From an uncultured Pseudomonadota bacterium (lineage in GTDB: Bacteria; Myxococcota_A; Bradymonadia; Bradymonadales; Bradymonadaceae), in NCBI GenBank assembly GCA_913057905.1, contig CAJXPB010000007.1, positions 57,807-121,806 on the forward strand: DNA of 64,000 nt, written 5' to 3'. Made by a program: the position numbers and the translations under genes. The notes under the pieces were generated by a model that saw nothing but the letters and a program-made list of their open reading frames with translations, did no database searches and was not told the origin of the DNA. Numbering within the stretch: the first letter of the stretch is position 1; the number at the start of each line of letters is the position of its first letter. Of this stretch, positions 16,985-33,016 are shown piece by piece.

Positions 16985-17029
16985 CCGCGCCCGCTCGAGC
17001 TGTGAATCTACCTGGAGCCTCCAAAGACC

Positions 17030-17812
17030 ATGAGCGACTACCAGACGATCGAAGTCACCCACGACGGACCGCGCTCGACCATACAGGTGCAGCGGCCCGA
17101 CAAACTCAACGCCCTCAACACCACCGTGCTCGAAGAACTCGAGGCGGCGGCGCTGGATCTTCAGACTCGTGACGGCCTTCGGGTCGTCGTCGTCGAGGGC
17201 GAAGGGCGAGCCTTTGTCGCCGGGGCGGACATCGCGTCGATGGCCGAGATGTCGGCCGAACAAGGCCGCGCGTTTCTTCGCCAGGGCCACGACACGATGA
17301 ACGCCATCGAGTCGATCCCCGTCCCGACCGTCGCCGCCGTCGACGGATTCGCCCTGGGAGGCGGCCTGGAGCTCGCCATCGCCTGCGACCTGATCGTCGC
17401 CTCCGACCGTGCAGCCTTCGGCGCCCCGGAGGTCAAGCTCGGCATCATTCCCGGCTTTGGCGGAACCCAGCGACTGAGGCGGATGATCGGCGCTCACCGC
17501 GCCCGTCACCTCGTCTTTACCGGCGAACGAATCGATGCGGAGACGGCCGCCGACTATGGGCTGGTCCTCGAGGTTGTCGACGCCGATGACTTCAGCGGGC
17601 ACATCGATTCCCTGGCGAGCTCGATCGAGTCGCGCGGCCCCCTCGCCTTGAAGGCCGCAAAACGAGTCATGCACCAGGGTCAAGATCTCGACCTCGACGA
17701 AGGCCTCTCGGCCGAAAGACAGGCGTTTGCAGACCTCTTCGAGACCGAGGATCGTCTCAAAGGTATGGAGGCGTTCCTGGACCGTCGAGACCCGAACTTC
17801 AACGGCGAATGA
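17030..17812 (+). CDS. enoyl-CoA hydratase (crotonase family)
   Basis: 260 aa. Oxyanion-hole segments FVAGADI and GGGLELAIACD. Confidence 0.93.
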   Translation: MSDYQTIEVTHDGPRSTIQVQRPDKLNALNTTVLEELEAAALDLQTRDGLRVVVVEGEGRAFVAGADIASMAEMSAEQGRAFLRQGHDTMNAIESIPVPTVAAVDGFALGGGLELAIACDLIVASDRAAFGAPEVKLGIIPGFGGTQRLRRMIGAHRARHLVFTGERIDAETAADYGLVLEVVDADDFSGHIDSLASSIESRGPLALKAAKRVMHQGQDLDLDEGLSAERQAFADLFETEDRLKGMEAFLDRRDPNFNGE

Positions 17813-17827
17813 CACCGGATTGAACCC

Positions 17828-18277
17828 ATGAGCGAGACACAGACTAAACAATCCGACGCCTCGCCCCCGGAGACGACCCACCGCGTTTTGATCGGCAAGG
17901 TGGGTCTCGATGGGCACGATCGAGGTGCCAAGGTCATCGCTCGAGCACTCCGCGACGCAGGTTTTGAGGTCATCTATACCGGCCTGCATCAGACGCCGGA
18001 GGCCGTCGCCGCCACCGCCGTCCAGGAGGATGTCGACGGGGTCGGCATCTCGATCCTCTCGGGTGCTCACAACACACTGGTCCCCGAGATCATCGAAGCT
18101 CTGGAGGAACGAGGCGCGGACGACATCTTCGTCTTCGCCGGCGGCATCATTCCCGAAGACGACATCGCGACACTCAAGGATCAGGGCGTGCGAGCGGTCT
18201 TTACCCCGGGCACGCCGACCCGCGAAGTGATCGATTTCGTCCGGGATGCCTGCCGCGAACAGGCAGACAACCGATAA
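17828..18277 (+). CDS. stand-alone cobalamin-binding domain protein (acyl-CoA mutase small subunit)
   Basis: 149 aa. [34 protein letters not shown] carries the DxHxxG B12-binding motif found in methylmalonyl/isobutyryl-CoA mutase C-terminal domains. Confidence 0.9.
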
Positions 18278-18301
18278 CTCCCTCGCCATCACGGAACACC
18301 C

Positions 18302-19453
18302 ATGGAATTCGAACTCGATGAACAACAGAAACTGATCCGAAACACCGTTCGGGACTTTGCCAAGACCCACATCAAGCCCCATGCCGAGGAGTGGGACGAA
18401 AAAGAGGAGTTCCCCCGGGAGCTCTTCTCGAAACTCGGCGACCTGGGCATCATGGGCGTCACCATCCCCGAGAAATACGGTGGAGCCGGTCTCGACTACG
18501 TCTCCTACGCTATCGCCATCGAGGAGCTCGCTCGATACGACGGGTCCGCGGCCCTCACGGTTGCCAGCCACAATTCCCTTGGTTCCGGGCATATCTATCT
18601 GGCCGGCAACGAGGCACAGAAAGAAAAATACCTGCCGAAGTTGGCCCGTGGCGAAGAGTTGGCCGCCTGGGGATTGACCGAGCCAGGCAGCGGTTCCGAT
18701 GCCTCGGGTATGTTGACCAAGGCCGAACGCAACGGCGACTCCTGGATCATCAACGGGGCGAAGACCTTCATTACCCAGGGAAGTGCCGGCGAAGTCGCGG
18801 TGATTCTCGCCTCCACGAGCCCGGAAAAGAGACAAAAGGGCATCACCGCGTTTATTCTCGAAAAGGACATGCCCGGCTACTCGGTGAGCCGAAAGATCCG
18901 CAAGATGGGAATGCGGGCCTCCGATACCGTCGAACTGCGGTTCGACGATGTCGAGGTTCCCGATGAAAATCGACTCGGCGAGGTCGACCGAGGCTTCATC
19001 GACACCCTCAAGATCCTCGATCGCGGCCGCATCAGCATTGCCGCCATGAGTGTCGGACTCGCCCGTGGAGCTCTCGAAGAGTCCATCGATTACGCCCAGG
19101 AGCGTGAACAGTTCGGCAACCCCATCTCGGACTTTCAGGCCATCAAGTTCAAGTTGGCCGACATGGCCACCGAGATCGACGCGGCCCGGCTGCTGACGAT
19201 GCGCGCCGCGACCATGGCGGACCGATCCAAAGAGACGGGACGCCGGTTCACGAAAGAATCGGCCATGGCCAAGCTGTACGCCTCGGAGGCCGCCATGCGG
19301 GCCACCGAAGAAGGCATCCAGATTCACGGCGGCTACGGGTACACCCGCGAGTATCCCGTCGAGCGGTACTTCCGTGACGCCAAGCTCGGTACCATCGGAG
19401 AAGGCACCAGCGAGATTCAGCGCCTGGTCATCGCCCGACAGCTCCTGGATTAG
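18302..19453 (+). CDS. acyl-CoA dehydrogenase (short-chain/butyryl type)
   Basis: 383 aa. C-terminal block [34 protein letters not shown]. Confidence 0.95.
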
Positions 19454-19455
19454 CC

Positions 19456-20403
19456 GTGAGCACAACCCTGGCTGCCGACATACTCGACGGCGACGTTCGT
19501 TCGGCGAGCCGACTCATGCGTTGGCTCGACGACGGACGTCCCGAGGCTAGAGCCGAACTCGATGCGCTCTATCCCCACACCGGCAATGCGTACTTTATCG
19601 GCATCACCGGTCACCCGGGATCCGGCAAGTCCACCCTCGTCGATGCGTTCATCCGCCTGTGCCGGGAACGTGACCTGACCGTCGCCTGTATCGCCGTCGA
19701 TCCCTCGAGCCCCTTCTCGGGCGGGGCCATTCTCGGGGATCGCGTACGCATGAATCGACACGCCCTGGATGACGGCGTCTTCATCCGCTCCGTCGCCACC
19801 CGGGGCAATCTCGGCGGCCTCTCCCGCTCGACCCCGGCGTCCGTCCAGGTCATGGATGCCATGGGGTTCGACATCGTCCTGATCGAGACCGTCGGCGTCG
19901 GACAGGACGAGATAGACATCGTACGACTCGCCGACACGAATGTCGTCGTCATGGTTCCCGGCCTCGGTGACGATATCCAGGCGACCAAAGCGGGCGTCAT
20001 GGAGATCGCCGACATCTTTGCGGTCAACAAGTCCGACCTCGACGGGGCCGACCGCGTCGTCCGCGAAATCAAGACGATGCTGTCGATGAATGAGTCGGCC
20101 GACGACGAGGACGCCTGGATTCCCTCGGTGCTCAAGACCGTGGCAACCCACCAAGAGGGCCTTGAGCCCCTCTTCGAAGCCGTCGAAGCCCATCGGGACT
20201 GGCTTCAAGCACACCGGTCGGACCGAGATCGAGATCGACAGCGCATCGAACAACTCGTACGACTCGTCATCTCCGGAGAGTTCGACGCCCGGATCGGCCG
20301 ACTTCTCGGGACCGATACCTGGAAGAGCCACCTGGAGGCCGTTCTCGACCGAACCGAGACGCCGTACGAAGCGGCCGACGCCCTCTTCGACGAAATCTTC
20401 TAA
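19456..20403 (+). CDS. meaB: mutase-associated G-protein chaperone MeaB/ArgK
   Basis: 315 aa with a GTG start. Walker A GHPGSGKST, switch region IETVGVGQ, and NKxD as VNKSDL. Confidence 0.92.
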   Translation: MSTTLAADILDGDVRSASRLMRWLDDGRPEARAELDALYPHTGNAYFIGITGHPGSGKSTLVDAFIRLCRERDLTVACIAVDPSSPFSGGAILGDRVRMNRHALDDGVFIRSVATRGNLGGLSRSTPASVQVMDAMGFDIVLIETVGVGQDEIDIVRLADTNVVVMVPGLGDDIQATKAGVMEIADIFAVNKSDLDGADRVVREIKTMLSMNESADDEDAWIPSVLKTVATHQEGLEPLFEAVEAHRDWLQAHRSDRDRDRQRIEQLVRLVISGEFDARIGRLLGTDTWKSHLEAVLDRTETPYEAADALFDEIF

Positions 20404-20441
20404 AAAAAAACCCCGGCTGGTTCTCCCAGCCGGGGCTTCTT
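20402..20441. terminator. bidirectional intrinsic terminator (meaB / lipoprotein L1)
   Basis: Perfect 10-bp stem CCCCGGCTGG / CCAGCCGGGG (20411..20420 and 20426..20435) with a 5-nt loop. Preceded by an A9 run, which reads as U9 for the minus-strand gene, and followed by CTTCTT. Confidence 0.7.
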
Positions 20442-20471
20442 GCTGCTGTGATCTGTCGTCATCCGCCGGAT

Positions 20472-21416
20472 TCAAAATCCGGGAGACAACGTCGAGTCGA
20501 CCGCCGGTCGGTGAGCCTCCACTTGGATGTCCTGAGACAATGACGAGGGGCCGAGGCCCTTTTCGTCGATCGTGTTGGTTACGTCGATGGTCTGGACGTC
20601 ATCCTCCCCGGGCTTTACGGAGGGCTCTTCCTCCTGCTCCGAATCTTCGGCCTCGACGACGGCGTCGCTGATCGGCTCGATGAGGTCCATGCCCCAGTCT
20701 CCGATATCGACCTCGACTTCCAGCGACTGCTGGCCCTCCTCGAGGTTCACCTGGTCCAAGGTCAACAGCAGGGGCACGTCACTGGCGTAGGTAAAGGGCG
20801 TCCAGTCGCTGGCCGCCATCAAATCATCTTCCGACATCTCCTCGTACTGCGTCTCGGGCTGCATCGGATGAGGAATAGGATCACCATCTTCTGCACTCCC
20901 ATCAGCACTGGACGACCAGGACTCGGCCGCCTGACTGTTGATAAATCCGTCGAGCTGGAAGGAATAAGGATAACTGCTCGGCGGCGACTCGCCGGAATCC
21001 GAGGAACCGGTATCCATCGCCGATGCTCCGAACTCCCCGGAAATTGGCTCGAGTCGAAGCGTCACATCAAAGGTCCCCGACTCCGGCAGCTCAAAGGAAG
21101 AGGCGTCGACGTACCGTTCGCCTTGTTTGACGTCGACGTCAACTGTTATCGGCTCCGCATTCGTATAAGCGATGCGGCGGCCGTCCTCCTCGACGGGATC
21201 CAGGCGAATCTCGGAGACGGTGAACCCGAGATCAGTAACCGTGAAACCCGACGGCAGTTTGTCGAAGCCGGTCAGATGAAAGGTCGGCTGGACCTCGACC
21301 GGCTCCGAATCCGTCCGCGATGGATTCCCGTCCCCCGGGAGCGTCTCCGCACAGCCCGCGGCCATCAAGGCCACGAGACTGACGGCAGTGAGTATGTCTC
21401 TATATAGTCGGTGCAC
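20472..21416 (-). CDS. acidic lipoprotein L1, unknown family (paralog of 25429..26253)
   Basis: 314 aa, GTG start with GAGGA 5 nt upstream. Signal peptide plus lipobox LMAAGC. Shares LRLEP, F.LDG.I, PIP.P, D.(G/N)DW...LI(E/D)PI and QT(I/V)DVT.T.D blocks with L2. Starts 24 nt after the stop of the bEBP gene. Confidence 0.75.
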   Translation of the reverse strand: MHRLYRDILTAVSLVALMAAGCAETLPGDGNPSRTDSEPVEVQPTFHLTGFDKLPSGFTVTDLGFTVSEIRLDPVEEDGRRIAYTNAEPITVDVDVKQGERYVDASSFELPESGTFDVTLRLEPISGEFGASAMDTGSSDSGESPPSSYPYSFQLDGFINSQAAESWSSSADGSAEDGDPIPHPMQPETQYEEMSEDDLMAASDWTPFTYASDVPLLLTLDQVNLEEGQQSLEVEVDIGDWGMDLIEPISDAVVEAEDSEQEEEPSVKPGEDDVQTIDVTNTIDEKGLGPSSLSQDIQVEAHRPAVDSTLSPGF

Positions 21417-21440
21417 GGGTGTCCTCGCCGTGTGCTTCGA

Positions 21441-24400
21441 TTAACTGACTAATTTCTTCTTCAAGGCCTTCAGATCTTCATCGCCATTGACGATTTGACT
21501 CAGTCTCGGGCGAGTCATCTGAAGGATCTCCGCCGCCCGGGTGATATTGCCCCCGGTCTTGGTCAATGCCCGACGGATCGACTCAAACTCGATGTGTTCC
21601 TTTATCTCGGAGACCGAGAGACCCTCGTCGATGATCTCCTCGATGAGCGCTTCCCTTGGATCGCCGATCTCGACGATATCCGCACCCTCTTCTCCGGACT
21701 CGCCCGTCGATTCATCCTCGATGGCGAACTCCTCCAGCGGTCGGTGAAACTCGACGTCAGGCAGGTCCATGTCGACCTCCCCTTCGCTGAAGAAGTCTCT
21801 AAACTCTTGGATGTGTTCGATCTCAACGGTTGGGCCGTCGACGAACAAGAGGACGCTGCGAACGAAGTTTTGCAGCTCCCGGATGTTCCCGGGCCAACTG
21901 TACGCCGCCAAAAATTCGAGGGCCTGTTCCGAGAACGCCTTCGGCTCCCGGTCGGCAAACTTCTCTGCAAAGTGATGGACCAGAAGAGGGATGTCGGCCC
22001 GTCGCTCGCGCAGTGGGGGAAGGTCGAGCACGACACCCTTGAGCCGATAGTACAGGTCGAGTCGGAAGGTACCCTCGTCGACCATCGTCTCGAGGTCGCG
22101 ATTGGTGGCACACACGACCCGGACGTCGACTTCCCGGGTCTCGTTGCCGCCGACGCGCTCAAATTCGCCCTCTTGCAGAACGCGCAACAGCGCCACCTGG
22201 GCCTTCTGCGAGATCTCGCCAATCTCGTCGAGGAAGATGATACCCCCGTCGGCTTTCTCGAACCGGCCGGTGGTCTGCTTGACCGCACCGGTGAAGGCGC
22301 CCTTCTCGTGGCCGAACAACTCACTGAGTAGCAGGTTGTCGACAAACGCCCCGCAATTGACCTTCACGAAGGGCATCTCGCCCGAGCTATTGGCCTGTTG
22401 ATGGATGGCCTCGGCGACAAGCTCCTTACCGGTCCCCGACTCGCCTTGGATTAGAACCGGCGATTCGCTGTCGGCAATCTGTTCGACGCGTCGAAACAGC
22501 CGCAACAGCCGTTCGTCCTGTCCGACGATGTCGTCGAACTGGGACCGCCAGCGCCGAAATGCCGCGTCGGAGCGCCAGTCGGTATCCCCAGCCGAATCCA
22601 ACGGTTTCTCGTCGTCGGTCTCGGCCGCCCCGTCATCCACATAGTCATCGAGTTCCGAAGGAATCTGTCCCTGGAGACGATGGACGATATTGATAAGACG
22701 ACGGTGAAGCGGATTCTCGAAGAAGCTGTCTCGGTATTCCTGGGGGACGTTGCTTCCTCGCCTCTGTATGTCGGCGAGCCACTTTTCTGCGACCGATTCG
22801 GCCTCTTGGGTTCGCCCCGTCTTTTCGAGGCCGCGGATCTGGGCGAGCGCACCCTGGAGTGCATCGTCCGGCATGGACTGGTCCTGCATCGCCTCGACCG
22901 ATTCGCGCCCCCTCCGAACAGCCTCTTCCCACTGCTCCCGGGCCACGGCAATATGGGCCCTCCCCACGCTGACGATTCCGTCGAGCACGTCCCCGTCCGC
23001 AGTGTTGTCACGGTCGGCGAATCTCGCGGCGAGTTTCTCGGCCTCTTCGACCTGGCCGAGTTGTGCGTGGGCGATGATCGACCGAGCGACCGCCCGGTTC
23101 GCCGGCCCACGTGATGGTGTATTCTCGTGGGTATCGGTCCAGGCGCGGGTCGATTCGAGCATATCCCCGTATTCGCCGCGCGCCAGGTGGACCATCACCA
23201 TCAGCACCCGCGGCAGTGACCCCAGATAGGTCTGTTCGTCGACGTCCTGCCGGGACTGGAGGTGGTGAGCAATTTTTTCAACCGAGTCGAGCGCACCCAT
23301 GTCCCGGAAGAGCGTGCCGAGGTTATAGGCGGCGACCCCGTAGGACCAACGGTCGCCGGATTGTTGGGCGGCGCGCATGGCATCCCGGTAGCGCTCCATC
23401 GCCGAATCGTATTCGTCGACTCGCTGGAGGGCCATGCCCAGGTTCAGAATCGGCTCGGCGCGGGGCATCCCGTTTGGCATCCCCGAGCGGTCAATGACGT
23501 CACGAAGCCGTGAGATGCCCTTCTGGTATTGGCTCTCCTGAAGGTCACAGACGGCCAAGTTGACCTCGGCGCGGAGTTCTTCGACCTCCCAGCCCCACTG
23601 CCGGGCGACATTCAGATTCCGTTCGTAGATGGGTCGTGCGGCATCGATATTGCCGCCCATGATCTCGACCTTGCCGAGCATATTCTTGGCCCGGACGTCG
23701 AGTTTTTCAGTGGTTCGCTCATCGAGAGAATCGCCCTGCTCCTCGATTACCTCGAGTGATGCCTCGGCCTCTCGCCGTGCGCCATCCTGATCCCCGAGTT
23801 TGTAGTGGGCGTCGGCGATACCCAGGCGAGCTCGAAGTCGAGTCTCCGCAGAGGGCTTATGCTCTGAGATAGCCTCCTCGTACGTCTCAACCGCGCGATC
23901 GAAGTCATCGCTCTCGACGAGGAGGTCGCCCCGTTCAACGGTCAATCGAGCGGCCTCGGAGTGTTCGGCCTTTTCGATCAGTTCCCGGTTGGCCTCCAGT
24001 GCGGACTCGTACTCCCCAAGGCCTTCGTAGATATCGACCAGAAAGGCCAAGATTTCGCGTCTCTCGTCGCCGGACGGGCACATCGGCAGAATGCGCTCGA
24101 ACAGTTCCCGGGCATCGTGCAGGGCATGGCGACTGTGCATGCGTCGGGCCGCCCGCATTCCGTATTCAAACCCGGCTTCCTCGTCGCCCGCCGCCAAGAA
24201 GTGGCGAGCGATGAAGGCCTCATCGAGACCGGCACCGTGGTGAGCTCGCGTGCTCGCCTCGGCCAGCACACGATGGATCCGTCGGGCGTGAGATTCGTCA
24301 AGATGGGAGCGTACGGACCGGGCAAACCCGGCATCTTCGAGTTGCAGGGTTACGCATCCATCGCCGATCGAGCGACGCACAAAGCCTGCGTCGCGGAGCT

Positions 24401-25328
24401 GGCGCATCAGTCGGCCCGCAGAATCGGACATCTCAAGGCGGTCGATGGCCCGCTCCAACACGTCGACCGGAATCGCCTGCTCGGCGACGGCCAGAAGCTG
24501 CACGACTCGCTGCTTGGGTTCGTCGAGGTCGCGGTATCGATGCTCCCACAAATTCGTACAATCCGTCGGCAGCTCGTCCATCAATACATCGAGCTGAGTC
24601 GGATTGCCCTCGGTGGATGCCAAAAACCGGTCGACGACGTCTTCCCTGGATAAGAACGCTTTGACCGATTGTCGCGCAGCGTCTGTCAGGTCGATGACGT
24701 CGGCGAGCTCTTCGTTGACGCCGAAGGGTGTCTCGCGGCCGACCTGGCCAACCACAGCTACACACCCGCGCACGGAGTCAAAGGCGTCGAGGCCGCCGCC
24801 GAATTCTTCGAAGGGGCCGTGCAGGTATTCCCGGACGAATCGTCCCAGAATGGAGCGTTCCGTCTCTGAGAGTTGTTCGGGATGAACCACCAGCAACAGA
24901 GCCGGTCGCACCTGACTGAGCCGCTCCCAGAGCATACAGGCCGACGACTCAAACGACGAGGCGTCGACGGAGCCTTCGTCGTCTTGGCCGCCCACATTTC
25001 GAGAGGTCGCGATGAATTCGGCGAGTCCCTCGGTCTGCTCATCCAGCGAAGCGTGTTGCTCGACGCGGCCCACGTACGTCGACACGACCTCTCGGAACGT
25101 GGTGCCATCGCCGATTCCACCGGTGGGGTCGAGCACGAGCAATTCGGTATCGCGCTCGGTCACCGCATTGCGCAGGTCCCCGACATGCTCACCGATGGCG
25201 CCGCCTCCGGCCCCGATCAGATGAACAAGTCGACCCGCGTGTTCATCGGAACACAATTCATCGGCCAACGCATCGGGGTCCCACCCAACCACCTCGTCGC
25301 TGTCGGACTTCGGACTCGGTTCGGTCAT
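21441..25328 (-). CDS. giant sigma54-dependent activator (bEBP-1): degenerate STAND-like N-domain + TPR array + AAA+ sigma54-interaction domain + Fis-type HTH
   Basis: ORF 21441..25349 trimmed to the ATG at 25328 (MTEPSPKSD...), which aligns with the paralog's start. Walker [15 protein letters not shown] encoded at 22284..22301, Walker B IIFLDEI, WPGNIRELQN, and a C-terminal [23 protein letters not shown]. There is no receiver domain. Confidence 0.9.
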   Translation of the reverse strand: MTEPSPKSDSDEVVGWDPDALADELCSDEHAGRLVHLIGAGGGAIGEHVGDLRNAVTERDTELLVLDPTGGIGDGTTFREVVSTYVGRVEQHASLDEQTEGLAEFIATSRNVGGQDDEGSVDASSFESSACMLWERLSQVRPALLLVVHPEQLSETERSILGRFVREYLHGPFEEFGGGLDAFDSVRGCVAVVGQVGRETPFGVNEELADVIDLTDAARQSVKAFLSREDVVDRFLASTEGNPTQLDVLMDELPTDCTNLWEHRYRDLDEPKQRVVQLLAVAEQAIPVDVLERAIDRLEMSDSAGRLMRQLRDAGFVRRSIGDGCVTLQLEDAGFARSVRSHLDESHARRIHRVLAEASTRAHHGAGLDEAFIARHFLAAGDEEAGFEYGMRAARRMHSRHALHDARELFERILPMCPSGDERREILAFLVDIYEGLGEYESALEANRELIEKAEHSEAARLTVERGDLLVESDDFDRAVETYEEAISEHKPSAETRLRARLGIADAHYKLGDQDGARREAEASLEVIEEQGDSLDERTTEKLDVRAKNMLGKVEIMGGNIDAARPIYERNLNVARQWGWEVEELRAEVNLAVCDLQESQYQKGISRLRDVIDRSGMPNGMPRAEPILNLGMALQRVDEYDSAMERYRDAMRAAQQSGDRWSYGVAAYNLGTLFRDMGALDSVEKIAHHLQSRQDVDEQTYLGSLPRVLMVMVHLARGEYGDMLESTRAWTDTHENTPSRGPANRAVARSIIAHAQLGQVEEAEKLAARFADRDNTADGDVLDGIVSVGRAHIAVAREQWEEAVRRGRESVEAMQDQSMPDDALQGALAQIRGLEKTGRTQEAESVAEKWLADIQRRGSNVPQEYRDSFFENPLHRRLINIVHRLQGQIPSELDDYVDDGAAETDDEKPLDSAGDTDWRSDAAFRRWRSQFDDIVGQDERLLRLFRRVEQIADSESPVLIQGESGTGKELVAEAIHQQANSSGEMPFVKVNCGAFVDNLLLSELFGHEKGAFTGAVKQTTGRFEKADGGIIFLDEIGEISQKAQVALLRVLQEGEFERVGGNETREVDVRVVCATNRDLETMVDEGTFRLDLYYRLKGVVLDLPPLRERRADIPLLVHHFAEKFADREPKAFSEQALEFLAAYSWPGNIRELQNFVRSVLLFVDGPTVEIEHIQEFRDFFSEGEVDMDLPDVEFHRPLEEFAIEDESTGESGEEGADIVEIGDPREALIEEIIDEGLSVSEIKEHIEFESIRRALTKTGGNITRAAEILQMTRPRLSQIVNGDEDLKALKKKLVS

Positions 25329-25428
25329 GGATCCTCGATTCGGCCACAAGAGTGCCTAATACCTAATAGATGAGGATAGGCATTGTGAGTGCTGGATCAA
25401 ACGCACGGGGTCACGGCGTTGTCGTAGA

Positions 25429-26253
25429 TCACCGCATCCGAAGCGTTCGCACCCGCACGTCTCCAGCGAGTGACTGATAGCCGCGGCCTGTCGAATCGAG
25501 GGTCTGCGTGACGTCCACGGTTTGGGGAGCGTCGGTCTGATCATCGTCTTTCGCTCGCGCCCGAACCAGTCGGGTAATCGGGTCGATCAGCTCCTCGGCC
25601 CAGTCGTTGACGTCGAGTGCGAAGCTCAGCACCCGACGGTCCTGGGCCAATTCCACGCGGTCCATGCGGTACGTTACCGCTTTCTGGCTCTCGTATTCGA
25701 ATGCAACCCAGGATTGCTGCTCCGACGACTCGGAGGTCTCGTCGTCATCGGGGTGGAACGGGTCCGGTATCGGATTGCCGCCGTCTTGGTAGGGGTCGTT
25801 CGAATCGAGGGCCTCGGCGATCTCCGGGCTGATCAAGCCATCGAGCCGAAACGTGTATTTGTCCTGCTCGCCCGCCGGCTCGAGACGCAACTCCACGGCA
25901 TAATCGCCGGGTTCGGGCACGGAAAACTCGGCCCCCTGCCGAACCAGCTCCCCCTGTTGCATATCAAACTCGACCCGAAACGGATCGTCGACGACGATGG
26001 ACTCGCTGCCATCGGCGGGAATCAACGTGATTTGAGCGACGCTGAACCCGAGCCGCTTCAGTTGAAGCGCCTCCGGAATCTGTCCGGTTCCCTCGACGGC
26101 GAACTCGGGCACCACGGTGAGTGCCGTGGAGTTCGACCGCACCGAGTCCGGCCCAGAACTGTCAGGGGTCGTCGTGTCGGCGCATCCGGTCGCAACCCCT
26201 ACGAGCCCCGCCACTACGACTGCCAAACACGTGTCTGTCCAATCTATCCTCAC
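25429..26253 (-). CDS. acidic lipoprotein L2, unknown family (paralog of 20472..21416)
   Basis: 274 aa with a GTG start. Lipobox GVATGC. Starts 25 nt after the stop of bEBP-2. Shared motif blocks are listed under L1. Confidence 0.75.
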   Translation of the reverse strand: MRIDWTDTCLAVVVAGLVGVATGCADTTTPDSSGPDSVRSNSTALTVVPEFAVEGTGQIPEALQLKRLGFSVAQITLIPADGSESIVVDDPFRVEFDMQQGELVRQGAEFSVPEPGDYAVELRLEPAGEQDKYTFRLDGLISPEIAEALDSNDPYQDGGNPIPDPFHPDDDETSESSEQQSWVAFEYESQKAVTYRMDRVELAQDRRVLSFALDVNDWAEELIDPITRLVRARAKDDDQTDAPQTVDVTQTLDSTGRGYQSLAGDVRVRTLRMR

Positions 26254-26278
26254 GTCAAACCTCGTTCGAGTATCCCGC

Positions 26279-29200
26279 TTAGCCGACCAATTCTTCCTTC
26301 AACGCAACCAACTCGTCATTCCCGTTGACGATCTGGCTGAGCCGCGGACGCGTCATCTGCAATATTTCGGCAGCGCGCGTGATGTTGCCCTCGGTCTCGA
26401 TCAATGCTCGGCGGATCGACTTGTGCTCGATCCGTTTCTTCATGTCCGAGATCGACATTCTGTCCGCGACGATCTCTTCGACCAGCGCATCCTGCACCTC
26501 GTCGAAGGAGTTCGGCCCGCCCCATCCGGGCTGAATGACGTCGCTGAAGTCGTCGACCTCGGGATTGTAGTCGATATCCGGCGCTTCTAATTCGACATCT
26601 CCATCTTCGAAGAAGTCGTCGAACTCCCGGATGTGGTCCATTGTGACGGTATCGCCGTCGACAAACAAGAGCACACTGCGCACGAAGTTCTGGAGCTCAC
26701 GGACGTTGCCCGGCCAATTGTACGAGGCGAGAAACTCTCGGGCCTCGCGGTCAAAGTCGACGGCCTCGCCCTCGGCAAACCGGTCCGTGAAGTGTCGCAG
26801 AAGTCGGGGAATGTCCCCTCGGCGGTCCCGAAGCGGGGGCAGCTCCAGGACGACTCCCTTGAGCCGGAAATACAGATCCCGGCGAAATTGCCCCTGTTCA
26901 ACCAGCCGCTCGAGGTCCTGTGACGTCGCAGCGACGACCCGTACGTCGGCCGAATAGGTCTCCGTTCCCCCGAGTCGTTCGTAGTTGCCGTCCTGCAGCA
27001 ATCGCAGCAGTGCGACCTGTCCCTTCGGCGAAATGGCATCGATCTCATCGAGAAACAGCGTCCCTCCGTCGGCAGCGACCACGCGGCCCTCTTTCGAACG
27101 GGCGGCCCCGGTGAAGGCCCCTTTCTCGTGTCCGAAGAGTTCGCTGAACAACAAGTTCTCGCCGTAGGCGCCGCAATTGACCCGCACCAGATCGGCGTTC
27201 GATCGCTGGTCTGCCCCGTGGCGGTGAATCGCCCGCGCCACGAGCTCTTTGCCCGTGCCGCTCTCGCCCTCGATGAGTACGGGCGAACGGCTTTCGGCGA
27301 CCTGATCGATTCGGCGGAGCACCCGGATGAGCCGATCATCCTCTCCCACGATCTCGGCGTAGCGAGCCCGCCAGGCCCGATATTCTTCATCCGAGGGGAC
27401 CTCCGGTTGCTGTTCGTGACCGTCGGTCTCTGTCTGAGCCCCGTCGTCGTCAAAGACCCAACCGGAGACATCTTCGGGAACGTCGCCCTTCAGCGAACGG
27501 TAGGTCTCAAGAAGCTGCCGGTGACGGTGGACGCGGTAGTATCGGGGCCGAAACGACTCAGGAACCTGTTCGGCCCTGCGCTGCAGTTCGCTGAAGGCCC
27601 GACTGGCCACCGATTCGGCCTCCGATTCGCGATCCAACTCGACGAGGCCCCGAATACGGGCGAGTGTGCCGACGAGCGCATGGCGGAAGAACCCCTCCTG
27701 TTCGAGCGTCTCGGCAGCGCGTTTGCCCTGAGCGATCGCCTCGTTCCAGTCCTGGTCTTCGACCGCGAGTTTCGCCAGCGCAGCTTCTCGCCAGCCGCGC
27801 GCTACCTCGGCATCGGCCCGTTCGGAATCGGTCTCGAGGGACTCGAGGGCCCGGCGAGCGGCCTCGAGTTGACCGAGCTCCACGTGGGCCACCGGGGTCG
27901 ACGCCGCGGCGAAGAACGCGGGTCCTTCGGCGGCTCCGCTTTGGTTCGAGTCGATCCATTCGGTCGTAATCTCGAGCATCTCGGCGAAGTCGCCGCGATC
28001 CATGTGCATGTTGGCGCTGAGGCCGCGCGGCAGCGATCCCAGGTAGTCGTGGCGATCTTCTCGAGATTGCTGGGCTTCGAGGTGATTCGATATCGCCTCG
28101 AGCCGGTCCCAGGCCCCGAGATCCTGATACAGGGTACCCAGGTTGTAGGCCGTGACTCCGTAGACGCGCTCGTCTCCGATCTGTCGGGCAACTCGAAGGG
28201 CCTCCTGGTAGCGCTCCAGCGCTTCGCTGTACTCGTTTTTACGCTGCAGGGCCATCCCGAGGTTGAGCAGAAGTTGAGGCTGCGGCATGCCATCGGTCCC
28301 GGCAGACCTCGATCGCACCTCTTCGAAGATCGCGATCGCCTGGTCGTAGTTGCCCTCCTGCATATGGCAGATCGCCAGGTTCTTGTCGGCTCGGTCGACC
28401 TCACGACTCCAGTTCCACTCCTCGGCGATCCGGCGGTTGGTCTCGAACAGCGAGCGGGCATCTTCGGCCCTCGAACCCATGACCTCGACCTTCCCGATCT
28501 GGTTTCGGGCGCGAATCGCCAGACGATCCGCCGCGGATTCGTCGATATTCAGCCGGCCGTCGGCGTCGCCACCGGCGTCGGCTGTCACCGCGAGCACATC
28601 CTCCGCGTGGGCCCGTGCGTCGTCGTACCGGCCGCGGTTGTAGTCGACGTCCGCGAGACCGAGCTTCGCCTTTGCCCAAAGCTCCGAAGTGGATTCGACG
28701 GTATCGAAGATCCCGGCAAACAGATCGGCGGCCTCCTCGAGGCGGCCGCGCTTTGTCAGAATCTGGGCGCGACGGATGTCGACACGCGCCCGGTCGGCGT
28801 CGCTGGCGGCCGCATTCCTGAGCTCCCCGCACGTCTCCATGGCCCGGTTCAACTCTCCGAGGCCCTCGTAGGTGTCGACGAGATACTCATGGATCTCGCG
28901 GCGCGAGTCCTCGTCGGGGGCATACTCCAGCAGTGACTCGAACAACCCTCGAGCCTCTTCGAGCGCATGGTGACTGTGGAGGCGTCGGGCCGCTCGCCGA
29001 CCGAACTCAAAGCCCCGCTCCCCCGCTCCAGCCGCCAGGAAATGCTTGGCGACAAACTGGTCACCGAGCTGGTTCAAATGGTGAGAGTCCGCCGCTGTCT
29101 CGGCGAGGGCCCGATGGAGGGGTTCACGAATATGCGCTTCCATCCGCTGAACCAGTGCATCCCCGAAGCCCGGGTCTTCGAGTTGAACGGTCACACAATC

Positions 29201-30172
29201 CGACTGGACCGAGCGGCTCAAGAACCCTTCGGAGCTGAGATCTTGGATCGCAGCCGAGGCCGAGCCGCCTTCGACACGTCTGTATGCATCCTGCAAAATA
29301 TCGACGGGCACGGCGATATCCGCGATGGCCAGAAGATCAACGACGACCTGCCGTTCGGCGGGGAGCTGTCGATACCGAAATTCCCAGAAATTGGTGCAGT
29401 CGTCGGGCATCGCCTCCATCAGGACATCGAGACGGCCCGGGTCTCCGCCCGTCGTCGAGACGAATCGGTCCACGACCTCCTGCTGAGTCAGGTACGACCG
29501 AACGGTGCTGCGCGCCGCACCGGAGAGATCCACGACATCGACGACGTCCTCGTCGATATCGAGGTTCGGGGGCCTGCCGGCATCACCGACGAGCGCAACG
29601 CAGCCGCGGAACTCTTTTGAGGTCGAGGCATCGGGCGCGAGCTCCAGAACCGGATCGCGCAGATGTTCCGACACAAACCGTTCGAGTGCCGAACGCTCGC
29701 TGATGCTGCACTCCCCGGCGTTGACGACCATCAATACCGCCGGCCGGTGGGTCGACAGGCGCTCCCACAGCCGGCCCATCGAGGATTCGAAGTACCGGGC
29801 TTCGACCACATCGTCCGACTGCTCTTCGGCCGTGTCCCGCGAGGTCGACAGAAATTCCGCAAGCTGGCGAGACTCCGAGTCCAGTGACGTGTGCTGAGAG
29901 ACCCGTCGTACGTAGGCAGTCGCGACATCACGGAAGGTGGTCCCATCTCCGACCCCACCCGTCGGATCGAGCACGAGAAGCTCGACGCCGCGGCGAGTCA
30001 TACTCGCTCGAAGTTCGCCCAGGCGGCGCTGGATCGCCCCGCGTCCCATGCCACGCACGTCGACTACCCGCCCGGCGTGCTTGTCATCGCAGAGAACCTC
30101 CGCAAGGCCGGAGGGATCCCAGTCTTTTTGGGACGACTCGTCGTTGGATTGCTCAGTCTGGGTCGATTCCAT
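26279..30172 (-). CDS. giant sigma54-dependent activator (bEBP-2), paralog of 21441..25328
   Basis: ORF 26279..30187 (TTG) trimmed to the ATG at 30172 ([10 protein letters not shown]...). Walker [15 protein letters not shown] encoded at 27104..27121, [10 protein letters not shown], and a C-terminal [22 protein letters not shown]. It aligns with bEBP-1 from the N-terminus ([19 protein letters not shown] vs GWDPDALADELCSDEHAGR) to the C-terminus. Confidence 0.9.
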
Positions 30173-30352
30173 TCGAAAACCTTCCAATCCCTGTTGAACG
30201 GTGCATGGTGGCTGATGCCGCAGCTCCCGCCCCCGCTTCGAGGGGGACCGATCCTCCGGGACCGAAGAGATGCGCTCACCCAGCCATCTTATGTATGAAC
30301 GTAACGAACCTTACGCATGGTTTCAACGTTGAGGCCCGCGTGCGTAATCCAT

Positions 30353-30368
30353 CGGGACGGTGTTTGCT
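30353..30368 (+). promoter_or_regulatory. sigma54 (-24/-12) promoter candidate: cGGgACG-gtgt-TTGCT
   Basis: Compared with the consensus TGGCACG-N4-TTGCW. The GG (30354-55) and GC (30366-67) have the required 10-nt spacing, and the -12 TTGCT is perfect. There are two mismatches in the -24 box. It lies 70 nt upstream of the ATG at 30438 and is divergent from bEBP-2. Confidence 0.5.
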
Positions 30369-30437: not shown

Positions 30438-31130
30438 ATGCGACGCTTTTTCGTATTGGCGACTGTCTTCGCAGTCACCCTCGCTGCCGGATGCGGTTGG
30501 TTGAAGGACGACATCGAAGATCTGACCACCGTCGATATCTCGGCGGAAATCCCCGCCGAGTTCCCCGTCGACGCCTCCGAGGCCTGCAGTACGGCCATCG
30601 AGGGGATCGACAGTTGCGACCAGGGAGGCACCGCCCCTGCACCGATGCGGATCGAACTCGATCCGATCGAGTTCGACCTGAACGTCGATGTCGTCGAGGC
30701 TACCGGGAAGTCCAGACTCGGCGACGCCGTCGACCGGCTCGAGAGCGTCACGATCACGAGTATCGACTGGGAGGTCCGGGACAATTCCCTCTCGTTCAAT
30801 TTGCCCGAAACGTCCCTGTACGTCGGAGAGTTCGATGCCGAATCTCGCAACCACGAATCGGCTTTCTCGGTAGCCAAGATTCCCTCGGTTCCGGCGGAGA
30901 CCGACGATTCCGGGACGTCTCAGGTCTCAGACGAAGACCAGTCCAAACTGAGCGATCTGCTGATCGGCGACGACAAAGAGACCGACGAAAAGCTCAAGTT
31001 GTCCGTGATTCCATATACCGTCCCGCGTATCGAGCAGGGACAGGACGTGCCGCCCAACGGCAGCGCCACCATCGACGTGACCATCAACGCCGAATTCGTG
31101 GCCACGCCCAAGTCGGTCGTCTCCAACTGA
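30438..31130 (+). CDS. lipoprotein, unknown family
   Basis: 230 aa. Starts MRRFFVLATVFAVTLAAGC (lipobox), with GGAG 6 nt upstream of the ATG. The mature part is acidic and has no recognisable motif. Confidence 0.7.
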   Translation: MRRFFVLATVFAVTLAAGCGWLKDDIEDLTTVDISAEIPAEFPVDASEACSTAIEGIDSCDQGGTAPAPMRIELDPIEFDLNVDVVEATGKSRLGDAVDRLESVTITSIDWEVRDNSLSFNLPETSLYVGEFDAESRNHESAFSVAKIPSVPAETDDSGTSQVSDEDQSKLSDLLIGDDKETDEKLKLSVIPYTVPRIEQGQDVPPNGSATIDVTINAEFVATPKSVVSN

Positions 31131-31221
31131 GCCAAACCGAAATATATAGCCGGCGAGCGCCGTTCACGAGTGCGACCTCTTCGCCCTATCGCCTCCCGAA
31201 CTGATTTTGAATCCGAGCCAT

Positions 31222-32157
31222 ATGAATCGACTGGTATCAAATCACTCCCTATCGCTGTCGCTGCTGATTGTCGCCGCCGTCGGACTGTATTCCAGTGTCG
31301 CCCTCGCCGAAGACGCCGGCGACCAGCCCGAAAAAGCGGCCGAGCCGAAACAGGCCGAGTCGACGGGCGATGCCGGGACTGCAGACCAACCCAAGTCGGA
31401 TCGAGCCGCCGGTGCCCAGGAATCGTCGGAGACCGAGTCAGATGGAAATGGCTCCGACAGAATTCTGGTCGATTACACCGGCCGACTCCAGGACCAGAGC
31501 GGATCGCCGATCAGCGGCGTGTTTCACTTTGAGTTCAACCTCTACTCCGACAGCAAGTCCGCCGAACCCCTCTGGACGGAGACCCGATACGTCGCCGTCG
31601 TCGACGGCAGCTACACGTTACCCCTCGGACAGAATGTGAAACTGCAACGAGAACACATCGCCGGGCCCCGCTGGATCGGTGTCGAATTGGTCGGCGAGGG
31701 AGAGATTCTTCGAGATAAACTGTCGATCAAAGAGACGAGTCCCGACGATGAGGCCGATGGAGACGGAGCGGTCTCTGAGAAGACGAAACGTTGGCTCGAC
31801 CGAGCGGCCAACAACAGCGACATGACCTTTGCCGAGGTCGCCAAGCGCGCTGTCTTCGCCGACCGCGCCGACCGCGCGGAGACGGCCCAGAAGGTCGGCT
31901 CGCTGACGGCCGAGGAGATCGAGCGGCTCTCAAATCTTTCGATGGAGCGCCTCGGAGAACACATCGCCGACCCCGAAGCCCACGGGGCCACCGGTCGCAC
32001 GCTGGGCGACGAAACACGCGTGCTTGACCAGGTGGGCGGCTCGGGCGGTGCGAGTTACCGTACCGAATGTCCGCCGGGGTTCGTGGTCACCGGGATTAAG
32101 GGGGGCGCGGGCGACATGCTCGACAGCATCGCCCTCATCTGCCGCCGCCTACAGTAA
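31222..32157 (+). CDS. secreted protein, unknown family, with a Cys-bracketed C-terminal motif
   Basis: ORF from the TTG at 31207. I prefer the ATG at 31222 (MNRLVSNHSLSLSLLIVAAVGLYSSVALAEDAGD, a signal peptide). The C-terminus is ...YRTECPPGFVVTGIKGGAGDMLDSIALICRRLQ. Confidence 0.65.
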   Translation: MNRLVSNHSLSLSLLIVAAVGLYSSVALAEDAGDQPEKAAEPKQAESTGDAGTADQPKSDRAAGAQESSETESDGNGSDRILVDYTGRLQDQSGSPISGVFHFEFNLYSDSKSAEPLWTETRYVAVVDGSYTLPLGQNVKLQREHIAGPRWIGVELVGEGEILRDKLSIKETSPDDEADGDGAVSEKTKRWLDRAANNSDMTFAEVAKRAVFADRADRAETAQKVGSLTAEEIERLSNLSMERLGEHIADPEAHGATGRTLGDETRVLDQVGGSGGASYRTECPPGFVVTGIKGGAGDMLDSIALICRRLQ

Positions 32158-32182
32158 CGACCACTCACGTGGAGTTTCCGAG

Positions 32183-33016
32183 ATGGGATCTTTGAGCCGC
32201 GCAGCGCGAGTAATCTTGGTATCGGCTTGCCTGCTGGTTCTCAGCGGCATCTACGGCTGCGACTCAAAGGTCCGAGGCCCCTCCCAGAGCCCGGGCACCA
32301 CCGACACGGACCGAAAGGCCGAGCAGACCGCTGCCGCCGAAGAACCCGCGGCCCCTTCCGCGCCGACGGCCCCCTCGGCCTCGGCTCTGGATGACTTCAC
32401 CGACCACCTGTCCGGACAGGGCCCGCTGGTGGCGACAATCGACACCACCGAGGGTTCGATTCGCTGCCGGCTCTTCGAGGACCGCACCCCCATCACCGTC
32501 GCGAATTTCGTCGGGCTGGCTCGCGGGGAGATCACCTGGGCCGATCCCACCGATGGAGATGTCGTCCGCGGGAAGCCCTTCTACGACGGGGTCGAATTCC
32601 ACCGCGTCATTCCCGAATTTGTTATCCAGGCGGGCGACCGCACGGGCACTGGAAAGCACGGCCCCGGATACACGATCCCCGACGAATTCGACCCATCCTT
32701 GCGGTTCGAAGTCCCCGGCGTTCTCGGGATGGCCAATCGCGGGCCCGATACCGGCGGAAGTCAGTTCTTCATCACCGAAAAGCCGCTGCCGCACCTGAAT
32801 GACCGTCACACGGTCTTCGGCATCTGCCGGGATCTGGACACCGTCCGACAAATCGCCCGAACGCCGGCCGGACCGGACAATCATCCCGAAAACGCCGTCC
32901 TGATTCGACGTATCACCTTCGAGCGCAGCAGCTTTTCGCGGGATCTGCCTCCAGAGGGCGACCGGGAGGGTGCCGAGCCGCTGGAGTTGCCCAACGGCGA
33001 CGAAAGCAGCGGCTGA
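32183..33016 (+). CDS. cyclophilin-type peptidyl-prolyl cis-trans isomerase, lipoprotein
   Basis: ORF 32024..33016 trimmed to MGSLSRAARVILVSACLLVLSGIYGC (lipobox; ATG at 32183). Cyclophilin blocks FHRVIPEFVIQAGD and GMANRGPDTGGSQFFIT. Confidence 0.92.
   Translation: MGSLSRAARVILVSACLLVLSGIYGCDSKVRGPSQSPGTTDTDRKAEQTAAAEEPAAPSAPTAPSASALDDFTDHLSGQGPLVATIDTTEGSIRCRLFEDRTPITVANFVGLARGEITWADPTDGDVVRGKPFYDGVEFHRVIPEFVIQAGDRTGTGKHGPGYTIPDEFDPSLRFEVPGVLGMANRGPDTGGSQFFITEKPLPHLNDRHTVFGICRDLDTVRQIARTPAGPDNHPENAVLIRRITFERSSFSRDLPPEGDREGAEPLELPNGDESSG

Follow-up and report, generated by a model that had tools for sequence, protein, structure and literature searches.

The window (the whole 64,000-nucleotide stretch of DNA that was analysed) carries two consecutive gene pairs on its minus strand, as a first-pass annotation had proposed, each made up of a large regulator gene (R) followed directly by a lipoprotein gene (L). 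All four open reading frames were recovered:

26279-30172, minus strand: R1, 1297-aa predicted sigma-54 enhancer-binding protein (EBP), from Pfam matches, AF2/Foldseek and identity with R2
25429-26253, minus strand: L1, 274-aa predicted lipoprotein, from its translation, AF2 model and family alignment
21441-25328, minus strand: R2, 1295-aa paralogue of R1 that shares its architecture and has an identical HTH recognition segment
20472-21416, minus strand: L2, 314-aa paralogue of L1, predicted lipoprotein with lipobox AAGC

The open reading frame tool stretched both regulators to upstream TTG codons (30187 for R1, 25349 for R2). The preferred starts are the ATG codons at 30172 (Shine-Dalgarno GGAAGG) and 25328 (Shine-Dalgarno GAGGA), from which the proteins have the lengths given above and match public-database entries (public protein P0007 is 100% identical to R2). 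The regulator stop and the lipoprotein GTG are separated by 25 nt in R1-L1 and 24 nt in R2-L2, with a GAGG Shine-Dalgarno 6 to 7 nt ahead of the GTG in both L1 and L2, which upholds the operon-like layout claimed at first pass. A search of the 350 nt upstream of every L gene returned no sigma-54 promoter. As L is always the next gene after R and lacks a separate promoter, both proteins are predicted to be made together, each pair being a putative bicistronic operon in which L is co-transcribed with R.

Within R1 (minus strand throughout), the following parts were distinguished:

29033-30172 (aa 1-380): pseudo-STAND NOD
30029-30052: degenerate P-loop of the NOD, G41-M-G-R-G-A-I-Q48, without GK[ST], placed by the AF2 model between strand 36-40 and the next helix
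27473-29032 (aa ~381-900): TPR array
26618-27358 (aa ~939-1185): sigma-54 AAA+ domain and lid
27245-27268: intact Walker A GESGTGKE of the sigma-54 AAA+ domain, from the sequence, with its columns invariant in the family alignment
27104-27121: GAFTGA sigma-54 contact loop, from the sequence and family alignment
26282-26452 (aa ~1241-1297): Fis-type HTH

R matched the Pfam families Sigma54_activat, AAA_lid_14, TPR_12 and HTH_8, with scores for R1 and R2 of 210.3 and 226.6 bits for PF00158 (cut-off 20.2), 70 and 76 bits for AAA_lid_14, and 24.1 and 29.5 bits for the Fis-type HTH (PF02954; cut-off 22); a match to TPR_MalT was weak. The GAFTGA loop and an intact Walker B of the sigma-54 AAA+ domain (LFLDEI / IFLDEI) are present in both R1 and R2. 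With its AAA+ domain, Walker A/B, GAFTGA loop and Fis-type HTH, R is by sequence a sigma-54 EBP. Against the NCBIfam EBP equivalogs (NifA, NtrC, RtcR, PspF, NorR and others) R fell under every curated cut-off, the best match being NifA (307 and 347 bits; cut-off 529), with matches limited to the AAA+/HTH part. The AF2 model of R1 aa 1-381 (pLDDT 75) gave Dark, CED-4 and Apaf-1 as top Foldseek matches (E = 4 × 10−6 to 1 × 10−4, probability 1.0) with TM-scores that were low (0.24 to 0.38), as expected with multi-domain models. On this model, the N-terminus of R has a STAND/NB-ARC NOD fold (P-loop NBD, helical domain and winged helix). The NOD P-loop (GMGRGAIQ or variants) has no conserved Lys or Ser/Thr in any of the 12 aligned family members, and the Walker B strand terminates in N or H, not Asp, in all 12. 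The NOD region had no Pfam STAND or AAA_16 match, and its profile had no PDB sequence match. Judged from these motifs, the STAND module is predicted to be a pseudo-NTPase, with Walker A and B degenerate family-wide; the earlier description of R as a STAND/TPR-sigma54 activator therefore stands for the architecture (Pfam, Foldseek) and fails for working STAND NTPase motifs. No transmembrane segment was predicted in R, which is soluble and cytoplasmic by prediction.

R shares with NtrC, NifA, PspF and other bacterial EBPs (bEBPs) the AAA+ domain (Walker A/B, GAFTGA), the AAA lid and the C-terminal Fis-type HTH, and N-terminal gating of ring assembly is presumed for R likewise. Where bEBPs use receiver, GAF, PAS, V4R or PRD domains, R has about 900 aa of pseudo-STAND NOD and TPR array, and it differs from them further in being invariably partnered with an exported lipoprotein gene that is predicted to be co-transcribed. 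Among the papers listed in a literature search, none that mentions "bEBP" also mentions "tetratricopeptide". With MalT/LAL-type STAND regulators, R has in common the succession of NOD, TPR/SUPR-like sensor array and DNA-binding output. However, that output would be sigma-54 remodelling in R rather than the LuxR-type recruitment of MalT/LAL, and whereas ATP binding by the MalT NOD drives oligomerisation, the NOD motifs of R are degenerate, so that oligomerisation and energy use would have to come from its sigma-54 AAA+ domain.

Two features of L1 (minus strand) were located:

26182-26184: lipobox Cys24
25759-25773: invariant P161-x-P-x-P165 loop

The lipobox ends in VATG-C24 in L1 and MAAG-C in L2, and a lipobox regular expression fitted most of ~130 L family representatives; beyond the lipobox, the signal peptide is not conserved. 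The invariant columns in a 67-member alignment were C24, P113, G116, G139, P161, P163 and W218, the invariant loop having the consensus [DE]-G-x-P-[IV]-P-x-P and being otherwise disordered in the model. In the divergent L variants of relatives L010 and L011 the proline motif is triplicated (DGDP[IV]P[ML]PA, three times). The AF2 model of L1, built from only 8 sequences, has a beta-sandwich core (core pLDDT 80 to 93), and Foldseek returned nothing significant for it (best E = 6.5 × 10−3, generic beta-sandwiches, TM ≤0.27). No Pfam family recurred across the 67 members (at most 2 members per family, E = 0.056 or weaker), the lowest E-value in the L family (2 × 10−4, JSRP) belonging to one member only; L had no match in NCBIfam or PADLOC, and the best PDB match of its profile had E = 0.12. 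The claim that the lipoprotein family was unrecognised was thus borne out: L represents, by its sequence, an undescribed family of lipobox lipoproteins and is a predicted SPase II substrate. The label "acidic" was correct as to its low pI but not as a distinguishing trait, since a pI of 4.0 to 4.8 is shared by R and by the proteins encoded nearby.

The proposed co-occurrence of regulator and lipoprotein was retained in relatives: L lay directly 3' of R at 15 of 15 junctions examined (11 contig sets, with one ocean [TARA] contig and further metagenome contigs among them), down to 22% identity in L and 30% in R. Where the starts are settled, R-L spacing lay between a 17-nt overlap and a 25-nt gap, the start and stop codons overlapping in the most divergent members; at two others of these junctions the called L starts were 52 to 75 nt downstream. 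The pair was intact where the flanks differ wholly (L010, L011, L015 and L019), and neither an L gene nor an R-type N-terminal domain was found at 80 control loci of generic sigma-54 EBPs (598 kb). The R-L link is thus real and conserved, and has so far been found only in Bradymonadales-like Myxococcota.

BLASTP aligned R1 and R2 from end to end (47% identity, E = 0), and L1 and L2 share 31% identity (E = 6 × 10−37); every regulator motif quoted in the first-pass annotation was found, and the shared lipoprotein blocks occurred in the order it gave. Nucleotide identity at codon positions 1, 2 and 3 was 63, 70 and 37% for the R pair and 53, 60 and 35% for the L pair, and only 42 to 44% of identical residues used the same codon. 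Such saturation of synonymous sites indicates an old duplication under purifying selection and not an assembly artefact, in agreement with the earlier reading. The R and L trees were congruent, so both genes were copied together, once the lineage had separated from single-pair relatives, which occupy the same chromosomal position as the tandem copies; the whole pair was doubled once, in tandem, and both copies have been retained since. In a second MAG, two R genes lie dispersed, and each is accompanied by an L of its own. Compared with the close relative L001, pair 1 of the window was more conserved than pair 2 (R: 93 versus 82%; L: 89 versus 85%), whereas compared with L004/L005 it was less conserved (R: 77 versus 83%; L: 58 versus 83%). 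This pair-specific rate covariation could equally stem from local recombination.

The following elements lie around the two pairs:

25373-25400, minus strand: candidate sigma-70-type promoter for R2-L2, in the spacer between L1 and R2, proposed from conservation
20402-20435, bidirectional: intrinsic terminator closing R2-L2 and the convergent meaB operon
30300-30315, no strand assigned: palindrome CGTAA-N6-TTACG upstream of R1, candidate R binding site (UAS)
30353-30368, plus strand: sigma-54-like promoter element CGGGACGGTGTTTGCT, oriented towards the divergent envelope operon, weak candidate
30438-33016, plus strand: divergent envelope operon of three genes, a possible local target putatively linked to R
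30438-31130, plus strand: 230-aa lipoprotein (signal peptide/lipobox in translation)
31207-32157, plus strand: 316-aa secreted protein (signal peptide in translation)
32183-33016, plus strand: lipoprotein cyclophilin PPIase (Pro_isomerase Pfam match)

The R2-L2 candidate promoter consists of a -35 TTGATC (25395-25400), a 16-nt spacer and a -10 TATCCT (25373-25378). It scores below the threshold of a consensus scanner; in four lineages the -35 keeps TTGA and the -10 keeps its T, A and last T without change, and the spacer sequence diverges. The terminator combines a 10-bp stem, in which 9 pairs are G-C, with a T9 run after it on the minus strand, and no comparable terminator was found in the L1-R2 interval. 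Long-range synteny of the locus with meaB and acyl-CoA genes is conserved and probably not functional. The palindrome is the only occurrence of GTAA-N5-8-TTAC in the 64-kb window; it is identical in L001 and has R-upstream counterparts in L010 (GTAA-N7-TTAC) and L011 (one mismatch). Element CGGGACGGTGTTTGCT is 37 nt away from the palindrome, precedes ATG 30438 by about 70 nt and is one of only two window matches scoring at least 10/12 (shuffles give 5.8); the evidence for it is weak because its -12 GC is TC in L001. Both L001 and the single-pair relative L008 have the same three envelope genes next to R. The distant L010/L011 clade has a canonical sigma-54 promoter (CGGCACG-N4-TTGCA) 73 to 128 nt upstream of R, which forms, with the palindrome, the best-conserved blocks of otherwise divergent R-upstream DNA. 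Searches ahead of R1 and R2 in the window, and ahead of R in L001, L008, L012, L013 and L015, yielded no sigma-54 promoter.

The first-pass proposal of an envelope-linked signalling unit is kept as a hypothesis, and L as a putative cell-surface lipoprotein. The most likely reading, to be held tentatively, is that L is the obligate envelope partner of R, an accessory or "sentinel" lipoprotein that feeds back on it. The pseudo-STAND/TPR region would keep the AAA+ domain off, as do the N-terminal domains of other EBPs and MalT-type sensor domains, until a protein or peptide ligand bound the TPR array; a hexamer would then assemble and sigma-54 promoters would be activated, with the R-L operon in this lineage driven from a sigma-70-type promoter. 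Feedback on R might run via an unexported or mislocalised form of L itself, or via an unlinked membrane protein. The module encodes no membrane-spanning transducer, and with R lacking a transmembrane segment and L exported, the route of L-to-R signalling is hypothetical. In NlpE-CpxAR, RcsF-Rcs, LpqB-MtrAB, CseA-SigE/CseBC and ZraP-ZraSR, an exported protein tied to a regulator reports envelope state, and the LpqB and CseA genes sit inside the operon of the regulator. R-L resembles these systems in linking an exported lipoprotein or periplasmic protein to a transcription regulator; unlike them, it encodes neither a membrane-spanning sensor kinase nor an anti-sigma factor, and R has no receiver domain.

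A simpler but less probable reading is that R positively autoregulates its own operon through a sigma-54 promoter, L being the constant structural or effector product of the regulon, active in the envelope and without influence on R. Many EBPs regulate adjacent genes locally, L lacks a separate promoter, and the conserved upstream blocks of L010 and L011 fit this reading; the lack of a sigma-54 promoter ahead of R in the window and the five relatives listed above speaks against it. Pair 2 instead carries the phylogenetically conserved sigma-70-type promoter, which suggests that L is more than just a sigma-54 target, and overlapping stop and start codons together with strict 1:1 pairing fit interacting partners more than a regulator and its target.

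It is improbable that L, either whole or in part (for instance the PxPxP loop), is an exported ligand of the TPR sensor, whether by RRNPP logic (a secreted propeptide gene immediately downstream) or by FlgM-sigma28 or T3SS TPR chaperone-substrate logic, with a cytoplasmic EBP reading lipoprotein export. The order of TPR regulator and then exported protein, and the invariant proline motif in an otherwise disordered loop, triplicated in L010/L011, are consistent with such a circuit, but L is a folded lipoprotein of 270 to 310 aa and no short propeptide, the module has no linked peptide importer (Opp-type included) or processing protease, and to our knowledge there is no example in Gram-negative bacteria or among sigma-54 EBPs. 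An RRNPP-type TPR quorum-sensing regulator as such was rejected: gene order is similar, but L is a folded lipoprotein of 274 to 314 aa and R a sigma-54 EBP. We also give little credence to a self-contained surveillance circuit without a membrane sensor, in which the TPR array of R would bind its own co-translated L. If true, R would bind the L precursor or PxPxP loop and report lipoprotein export or trafficking, a sigma-54 counterpart of FlgM/sigma-28 or NlpE "sentinel lipoprotein" logic, duplicated here into two channels with common DNA sites. That L is an unrelated envelope gene fixed early beside R and kept by operon inertia is likewise improbable: the conserved meaB and acyl-CoA synteny offers a precedent, but the pair stays intact amid wholly different flanks, duplicates and disperses as a unit, has overlapping codons in its most divergent members, and L never stood beside another EBP at the 80 control loci.

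The DNA-recognition helix is identical in R1 and R2, which may therefore use common binding sites or assemble into mixed rings. HrpR/HrpS of Pseudomonas syringae are tandem paralogous EBPs that act together and lack regulatory domains. Tandem paralogous EBPs acting together are also described in PMC10084136 (RedR1/RedR2, Aromatoleum). The genes for R1 and R2 are likewise in tandem, but in contrast to HrpR/HrpS each protein retains a 900-aa sensor and a lipoprotein of its own. The R1 orthologue of one lineage has lost both GAFTGA and Walker B, which would fit an asymmetric partner.

All four minus-strand ORFs that the first-pass annotation had arranged as two tandem pairs, each a large sigma-54 activator (R) followed directly by a lipoprotein gene (L), were recovered where it had placed them:

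26279-30172, minus strand, R1, ORF of 1297 aa
25429-26253, minus strand, L1, ORF of 274 aa
21441-25328, minus strand, R2, ORF of 1295 aa
20472-21416, minus strand, L2, ORF of 314 aa

Called mechanically, the ORFs of R1 and R2 begin further upstream at TTG (30187 and 25349, respectively); the ATG starts chosen for the regulators in the first-pass annotation are backed by ribosome-binding sites (GGAAGG and GAGGA) and by lengths that match public collections. Distances from regulator stop to lipoprotein GTG were as claimed (R1-L1: 25 nt; R2-L2: 24 nt), with GAGG lying 6 to 7 nt 5′ of each GTG. The regulators are alike from end to end (47% identity, E = 0) and the lipoproteins are related (31% identity, E = 6 × 10−37), as had been proposed, and every motif quoted for either was located in the sequences. 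At third codon positions the two copies of R share just 37% identity and those of L 35%, so the duplication is ancient and genuine rather than an artefact and has been maintained by purifying selection, in line with the earlier reading. The label “acidic lipoprotein” is correct for L but not distinctive, as R and the neighboring proteins also have a pI of 4.0 to 4.8. Every protein checked in the window was strongly acidic, within this same range, which suggests a salt-adapted proteome. Two more minus-strand ORFs considered as downstream operon members (16523-19465, 980 aa; 19450-20475, 341 aa) were rejected as antisense shadows, the real genes lying on the plus strand: hbd (3-hydroxyacyl-CoA dehydrogenase), crotonase (enoyl-CoA hydratase), a gene for a B12-binding mutase subunit, one for acyl-CoA dehydrogenase, and meaB. 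All of them run convergent to L2.

The order R then L was conserved at 15 of 15 junctions across 11 contig sets, upholding the predicted synteny. An L-family gene lies directly 3′ of the R homologue in close relatives (loci L001 and L003 to L007), in loci L008 and L009 (36 to 44% R identity) and in L010/L014, L011 and L013 (31 to 40% R identity). Distant L proteins keep the same arrangement: P0098 (22% identical to L1) starts 10 nt after a 1327-aa TPR/sigma-54 protein, P0024 starts 15 nt after an R fragment, and P0138 and P0127 (the latter from a TARA ocean contig) overlap the R C-terminus by 17 and 4 nt, respectively. Flanking genes are wholly different in L010, L011, L015 and L019, R-L alone being constant. 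As a control, 80 generic sigma-54 activator (EBP) loci (598 kb) contained no L gene and no R-type N-terminus; these loci came from a metagenome scan with the R C-terminal alignment, whose generic motifs returned generic EBPs only. When the R N-terminal alignment was used for the metagenome scan instead, there were no hits, and a scan of GTDB species representatives gave 3 loci only. Taxon labels available for carriers were Bradymonadaceae, Bradymonadales and Myxococcota. Two dispersed pairs on separate contigs (L013 and L014) of the uncultured Bradymonadales MAG CAZRLK01 indicate paralogous expansion of the pair beyond the tandem case of the window; the R gene of L013 is also divergent from a lipoprotein gene. 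As judged from gene order, the pairing is strict, 1:1 and ancient. A literature search found no description of the R-L module.

Neighbor-joining trees of R and L were congruent, with R1 and R2, and likewise L1 and L2, forming sister clades, and the single pairs of L008 and L016 falling outside. Loci L008, L016 and L017 carry a single pair at the position occupied in the window, convergent on meaB and acyl-CoA genes, and that of L008 is additionally divergent from the same cyclophilin operon as in the window. The congruent trees, together with single pairs at the same position, indicate that R and L were duplicated together, as a tandem copy at the original locus, and the L-meaB position marks its ancestral chromosomal site. 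The convergent adjacency of L and meaB (20403-20472 in the window; also L008, L016 and L017) has been kept though L is only ∼23% identical between members. Both copies were retained in all sampled members of the clade, with L1 identity down to 56%. Evolutionary rates differ by pair, R and L varying together, which is compatible with co-evolution and equally with local recombination.

Pfam matches in R1 and R2 comprised Sigma54_activat (210 and 227 bits, respectively), AAA_lid_14 and HTH_8, with several TPR families spanning approximately aa 400 to 900. Walker A (GESGTGKE), Walker B and GAFTGA of the sigma-54 AAA+ domain are all intact, and by domain content R is a bona fide bEBP; it reached none of the named NCBIfam EBP cut-offs. 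The first ∼380 aa had no Pfam match and no PDB sequence match. An AlphaFold2 model of this N-terminal region (10-sequence alignment, pLDDT 75) matched Dark, CED-4 and Apaf-1, then ORC and RFC, in Foldseek (E = 4 × 10−6 to 1 × 10−4, probability 1.0). The STAND label given to the regulator at first pass is therefore valid as a fold, in the form of an NB-ARC/STAND-type nucleotide-binding region (NOD). Its P-loop, which follows strand 36-40 in R1, reads GMGRGAIQ, without Lys or Ser/Thr, and its Walker B strand terminates in H or N, not Asp. Since these defects are common to 12 of 12 aligned family members, the NOD is best described as a pseudo-NTPase, STAND-like by fold but failing on its nucleotide-binding motifs, and the sigma-54 AAA+ domain is predicted to be the sole competent ATPase in R. 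No hydrophobic segment fits a membrane span in R (a hydropathy peak in R1 is absent from R2). From its sequence, R is a cytoplasmic protein whose sigma-54 motor is functional and whose NOD is dead. If confirmed, this would be a new input architecture for sigma-54 activators, a STAND/TPR module without nucleotide binding fused to a working AAA+ motor.

The N-terminus of L is a signal peptide ending in a lipobox, which identifies it, from sequence, as an exported lipoprotein. Searched exhaustively with a profile, 1.84 billion representative proteins yielded 132 L-family clusters at E ≤ 1 × 10−3 and 95 at E ≤ 1 × 10−10, nearly all of 250 to 310 aa, acidic and with a lipobox. The family became visible because the search was exhaustive; word-indexed searches missed most of it, returning 6 close relatives with L1 alone and 8 with a 67-sequence profile. 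The lipobox Cys, P113, G116, G139, P161, P163 and W218 do not vary among 67 members, and a loop [DE]-G-x-P-[IV]-P-x-P is conserved. In the AlphaFold2 model (8 sequences, core pLDDT 80 to 93) L is a beta-sandwich, with PxPxP inside a disordered acidic insertion that is followed by a C-terminal helix. The lipoproteins that follow R in L010 (13911-14594) and L011 (13830-14645) keep just the C-terminal half of the fold and carry the proline motif in triplicate (DGDP[IV]P[ML]PA x3), which suggests that the functional core of L proteins is this motif. The lipoproteins had not been recognized at first pass, and L indeed belongs to no described family: Pfam gave no recurrent match across 67 members, NCBIfam and PADLOC gave none (nor did PADLOC indicate defence-system membership), a PDB profile search was empty, and the best Foldseek match of the model (E = 6.5 × 10−3) was a generic beta-sandwich resemblance with nothing significant. 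Likeness to MbnP and a Bacteroides adhesin had a probability of 0.95 but a TM of about 0.25, and was likewise judged generic. Public names for these proteins are “hypothetical protein” or none. If confirmed, L would be a new unannotated lipoprotein family of ∼130 clusters (50% identity level) whose strict genetic linkage to a regulator makes it a handle on envelope or predation-related signaling in the little-studied predatory Bradymonadales.

The 350 nt upstream of each L gene contained no sigma-54 promoter-like element, so L is, as far as promoter elements indicate, read from the R transcript, R and L being co-transcribed; the idea of a sigma-54 promoter within the 3′-terminal part of R was rejected. 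The elements located around the pairs were:

20402-20435, strong terminator after L2, none comparable after L1
30300-30315, palindrome CGTAA-N6-TTACG, identical in L001
30353-30368, sigma-54-like element, 37 nt from the palindrome, facing the divergent operon
30438-33016, plus strand, divergent envelope operon (230-aa lipoprotein, 316-aa secreted protein, lipoprotein cyclophilin PPIase)

The L1-R2 spacer holds a sigma-70-like candidate promoter (TTGAnn, 16-nt spacer, TAnnnT). Four lineages have identical diagnostic bases but differ in the spacer sequence; given this conservation, pair 2 appears to have its own promoter, independent of sigma-54. A match to GG-N10-GC that lies 13 nt ahead of the R2 ATG was discarded, as its transcript would lack the Shine-Dalgarno sequence and the site has a poor −12 element. 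Overlapping the candidate −10 of the R2 promoter is an inverted repeat, GCCTA-N11-TAGGC (25345-25381, minus strand), kept in L001 and L004 and absent from L003; its right arm is partly duplicated in the window (TTAGGTATTAGGC), and an operator or a hairpin in the 5′ RNA are possible roles for it. The region upstream of R1 showed no credible sigma-54 promoter oriented toward that gene.

These data bear on whether L is an obligate partner of R or, as the main rival explanation holds, its autoregulated output. In favor of the latter, the distant loci L010 and L011 have a canonical CGGCACG-N4-TTGCA 73 and 128 nt before R, the best-conserved block of a poorly conserved spacer, with a (T/C)GTAA-N7-TTAC-like palindrome ∼45 nt upstream of it. 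We consider it more likely that L is a partner rather than a target only, because most lineages have very short gaps or overlapping stop and start codons, R and L move and duplicate together, and the operon in the window lineage is apparently not sigma-54-driven. As a partner, L would serve in the envelope as an accessory or sentinel protein, and its state there would in turn influence R, where the NOD-TPR region would gate AAA+ ring assembly and a ligand bound at the TPR array would lift that gate. The return path from L to R could run via L precursor or mislocalized L, or via an unlinked membrane protein; the module encodes no membrane transducer, and topology is the weak point of the partner model. 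In sensor logic the module resembles MalT-type STAND regulators; its genetic logic is like that of the regulator/accessory-lipoprotein systems LpqB-MtrAB, CseA, NlpE-Cpx and ZraP-ZraSR, and its tandem EBP paralogues have a parallel in HrpR/HrpS. The evidence of conservation is strong, and the module is proposed to be an EBP with pseudo-STAND/TPR input and an obligate lipoprotein partner. For now, R-L is best described as a conserved gene pair with good support, which does not amount to a new type of system.

The palindrome at 30300-30315 is comparable to that of L010 and L011 and is the single occurrence of GTAA-N5-8-TTAC in the 64-kb window. When at least 10 of 12 consensus positions must match, the window has fewer GG-N10-GC sites than expected (2 versus 5.8 in shuffles), and the element at 30353-30368 is one of the two. 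Because this element faces the divergent operon, 37 nt from the palindrome, the operon is a plausible local target of R; support is weak, since the −12 GC is TC in L001 and L008 has nothing comparable. The operon is kept beside R in L001 and L008, a link absent from other lineages. Its 230-aa lipoprotein is not homologous to L. The presence of a cyclophilin beside a family with an invariant PxPxP loop is suggestive.

A recognition segment of the C-terminal DNA-binding HTH is identical in R1 and R2, making shared binding sites or mixed R1/R2 rings possible. If confirmed, a tandem duplicate with identical DNA-reading heads and, in one lineage, a degenerating R1 motor would be a natural experiment on EBP paralogues diverging or starting to cooperate. 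In the R1 orthologue P0013 (L005, 153-3920), GAFPGA replaces GAFTGA and the Walker B is LFLEGV in place of LFLDEI; the AAA+ domain of R2 in the same lineage (contig L004) is still 92% identical to that of the window. The substitutions in P0013 suggest that R1 may be losing its motor function and becoming a regulatory paralogue.
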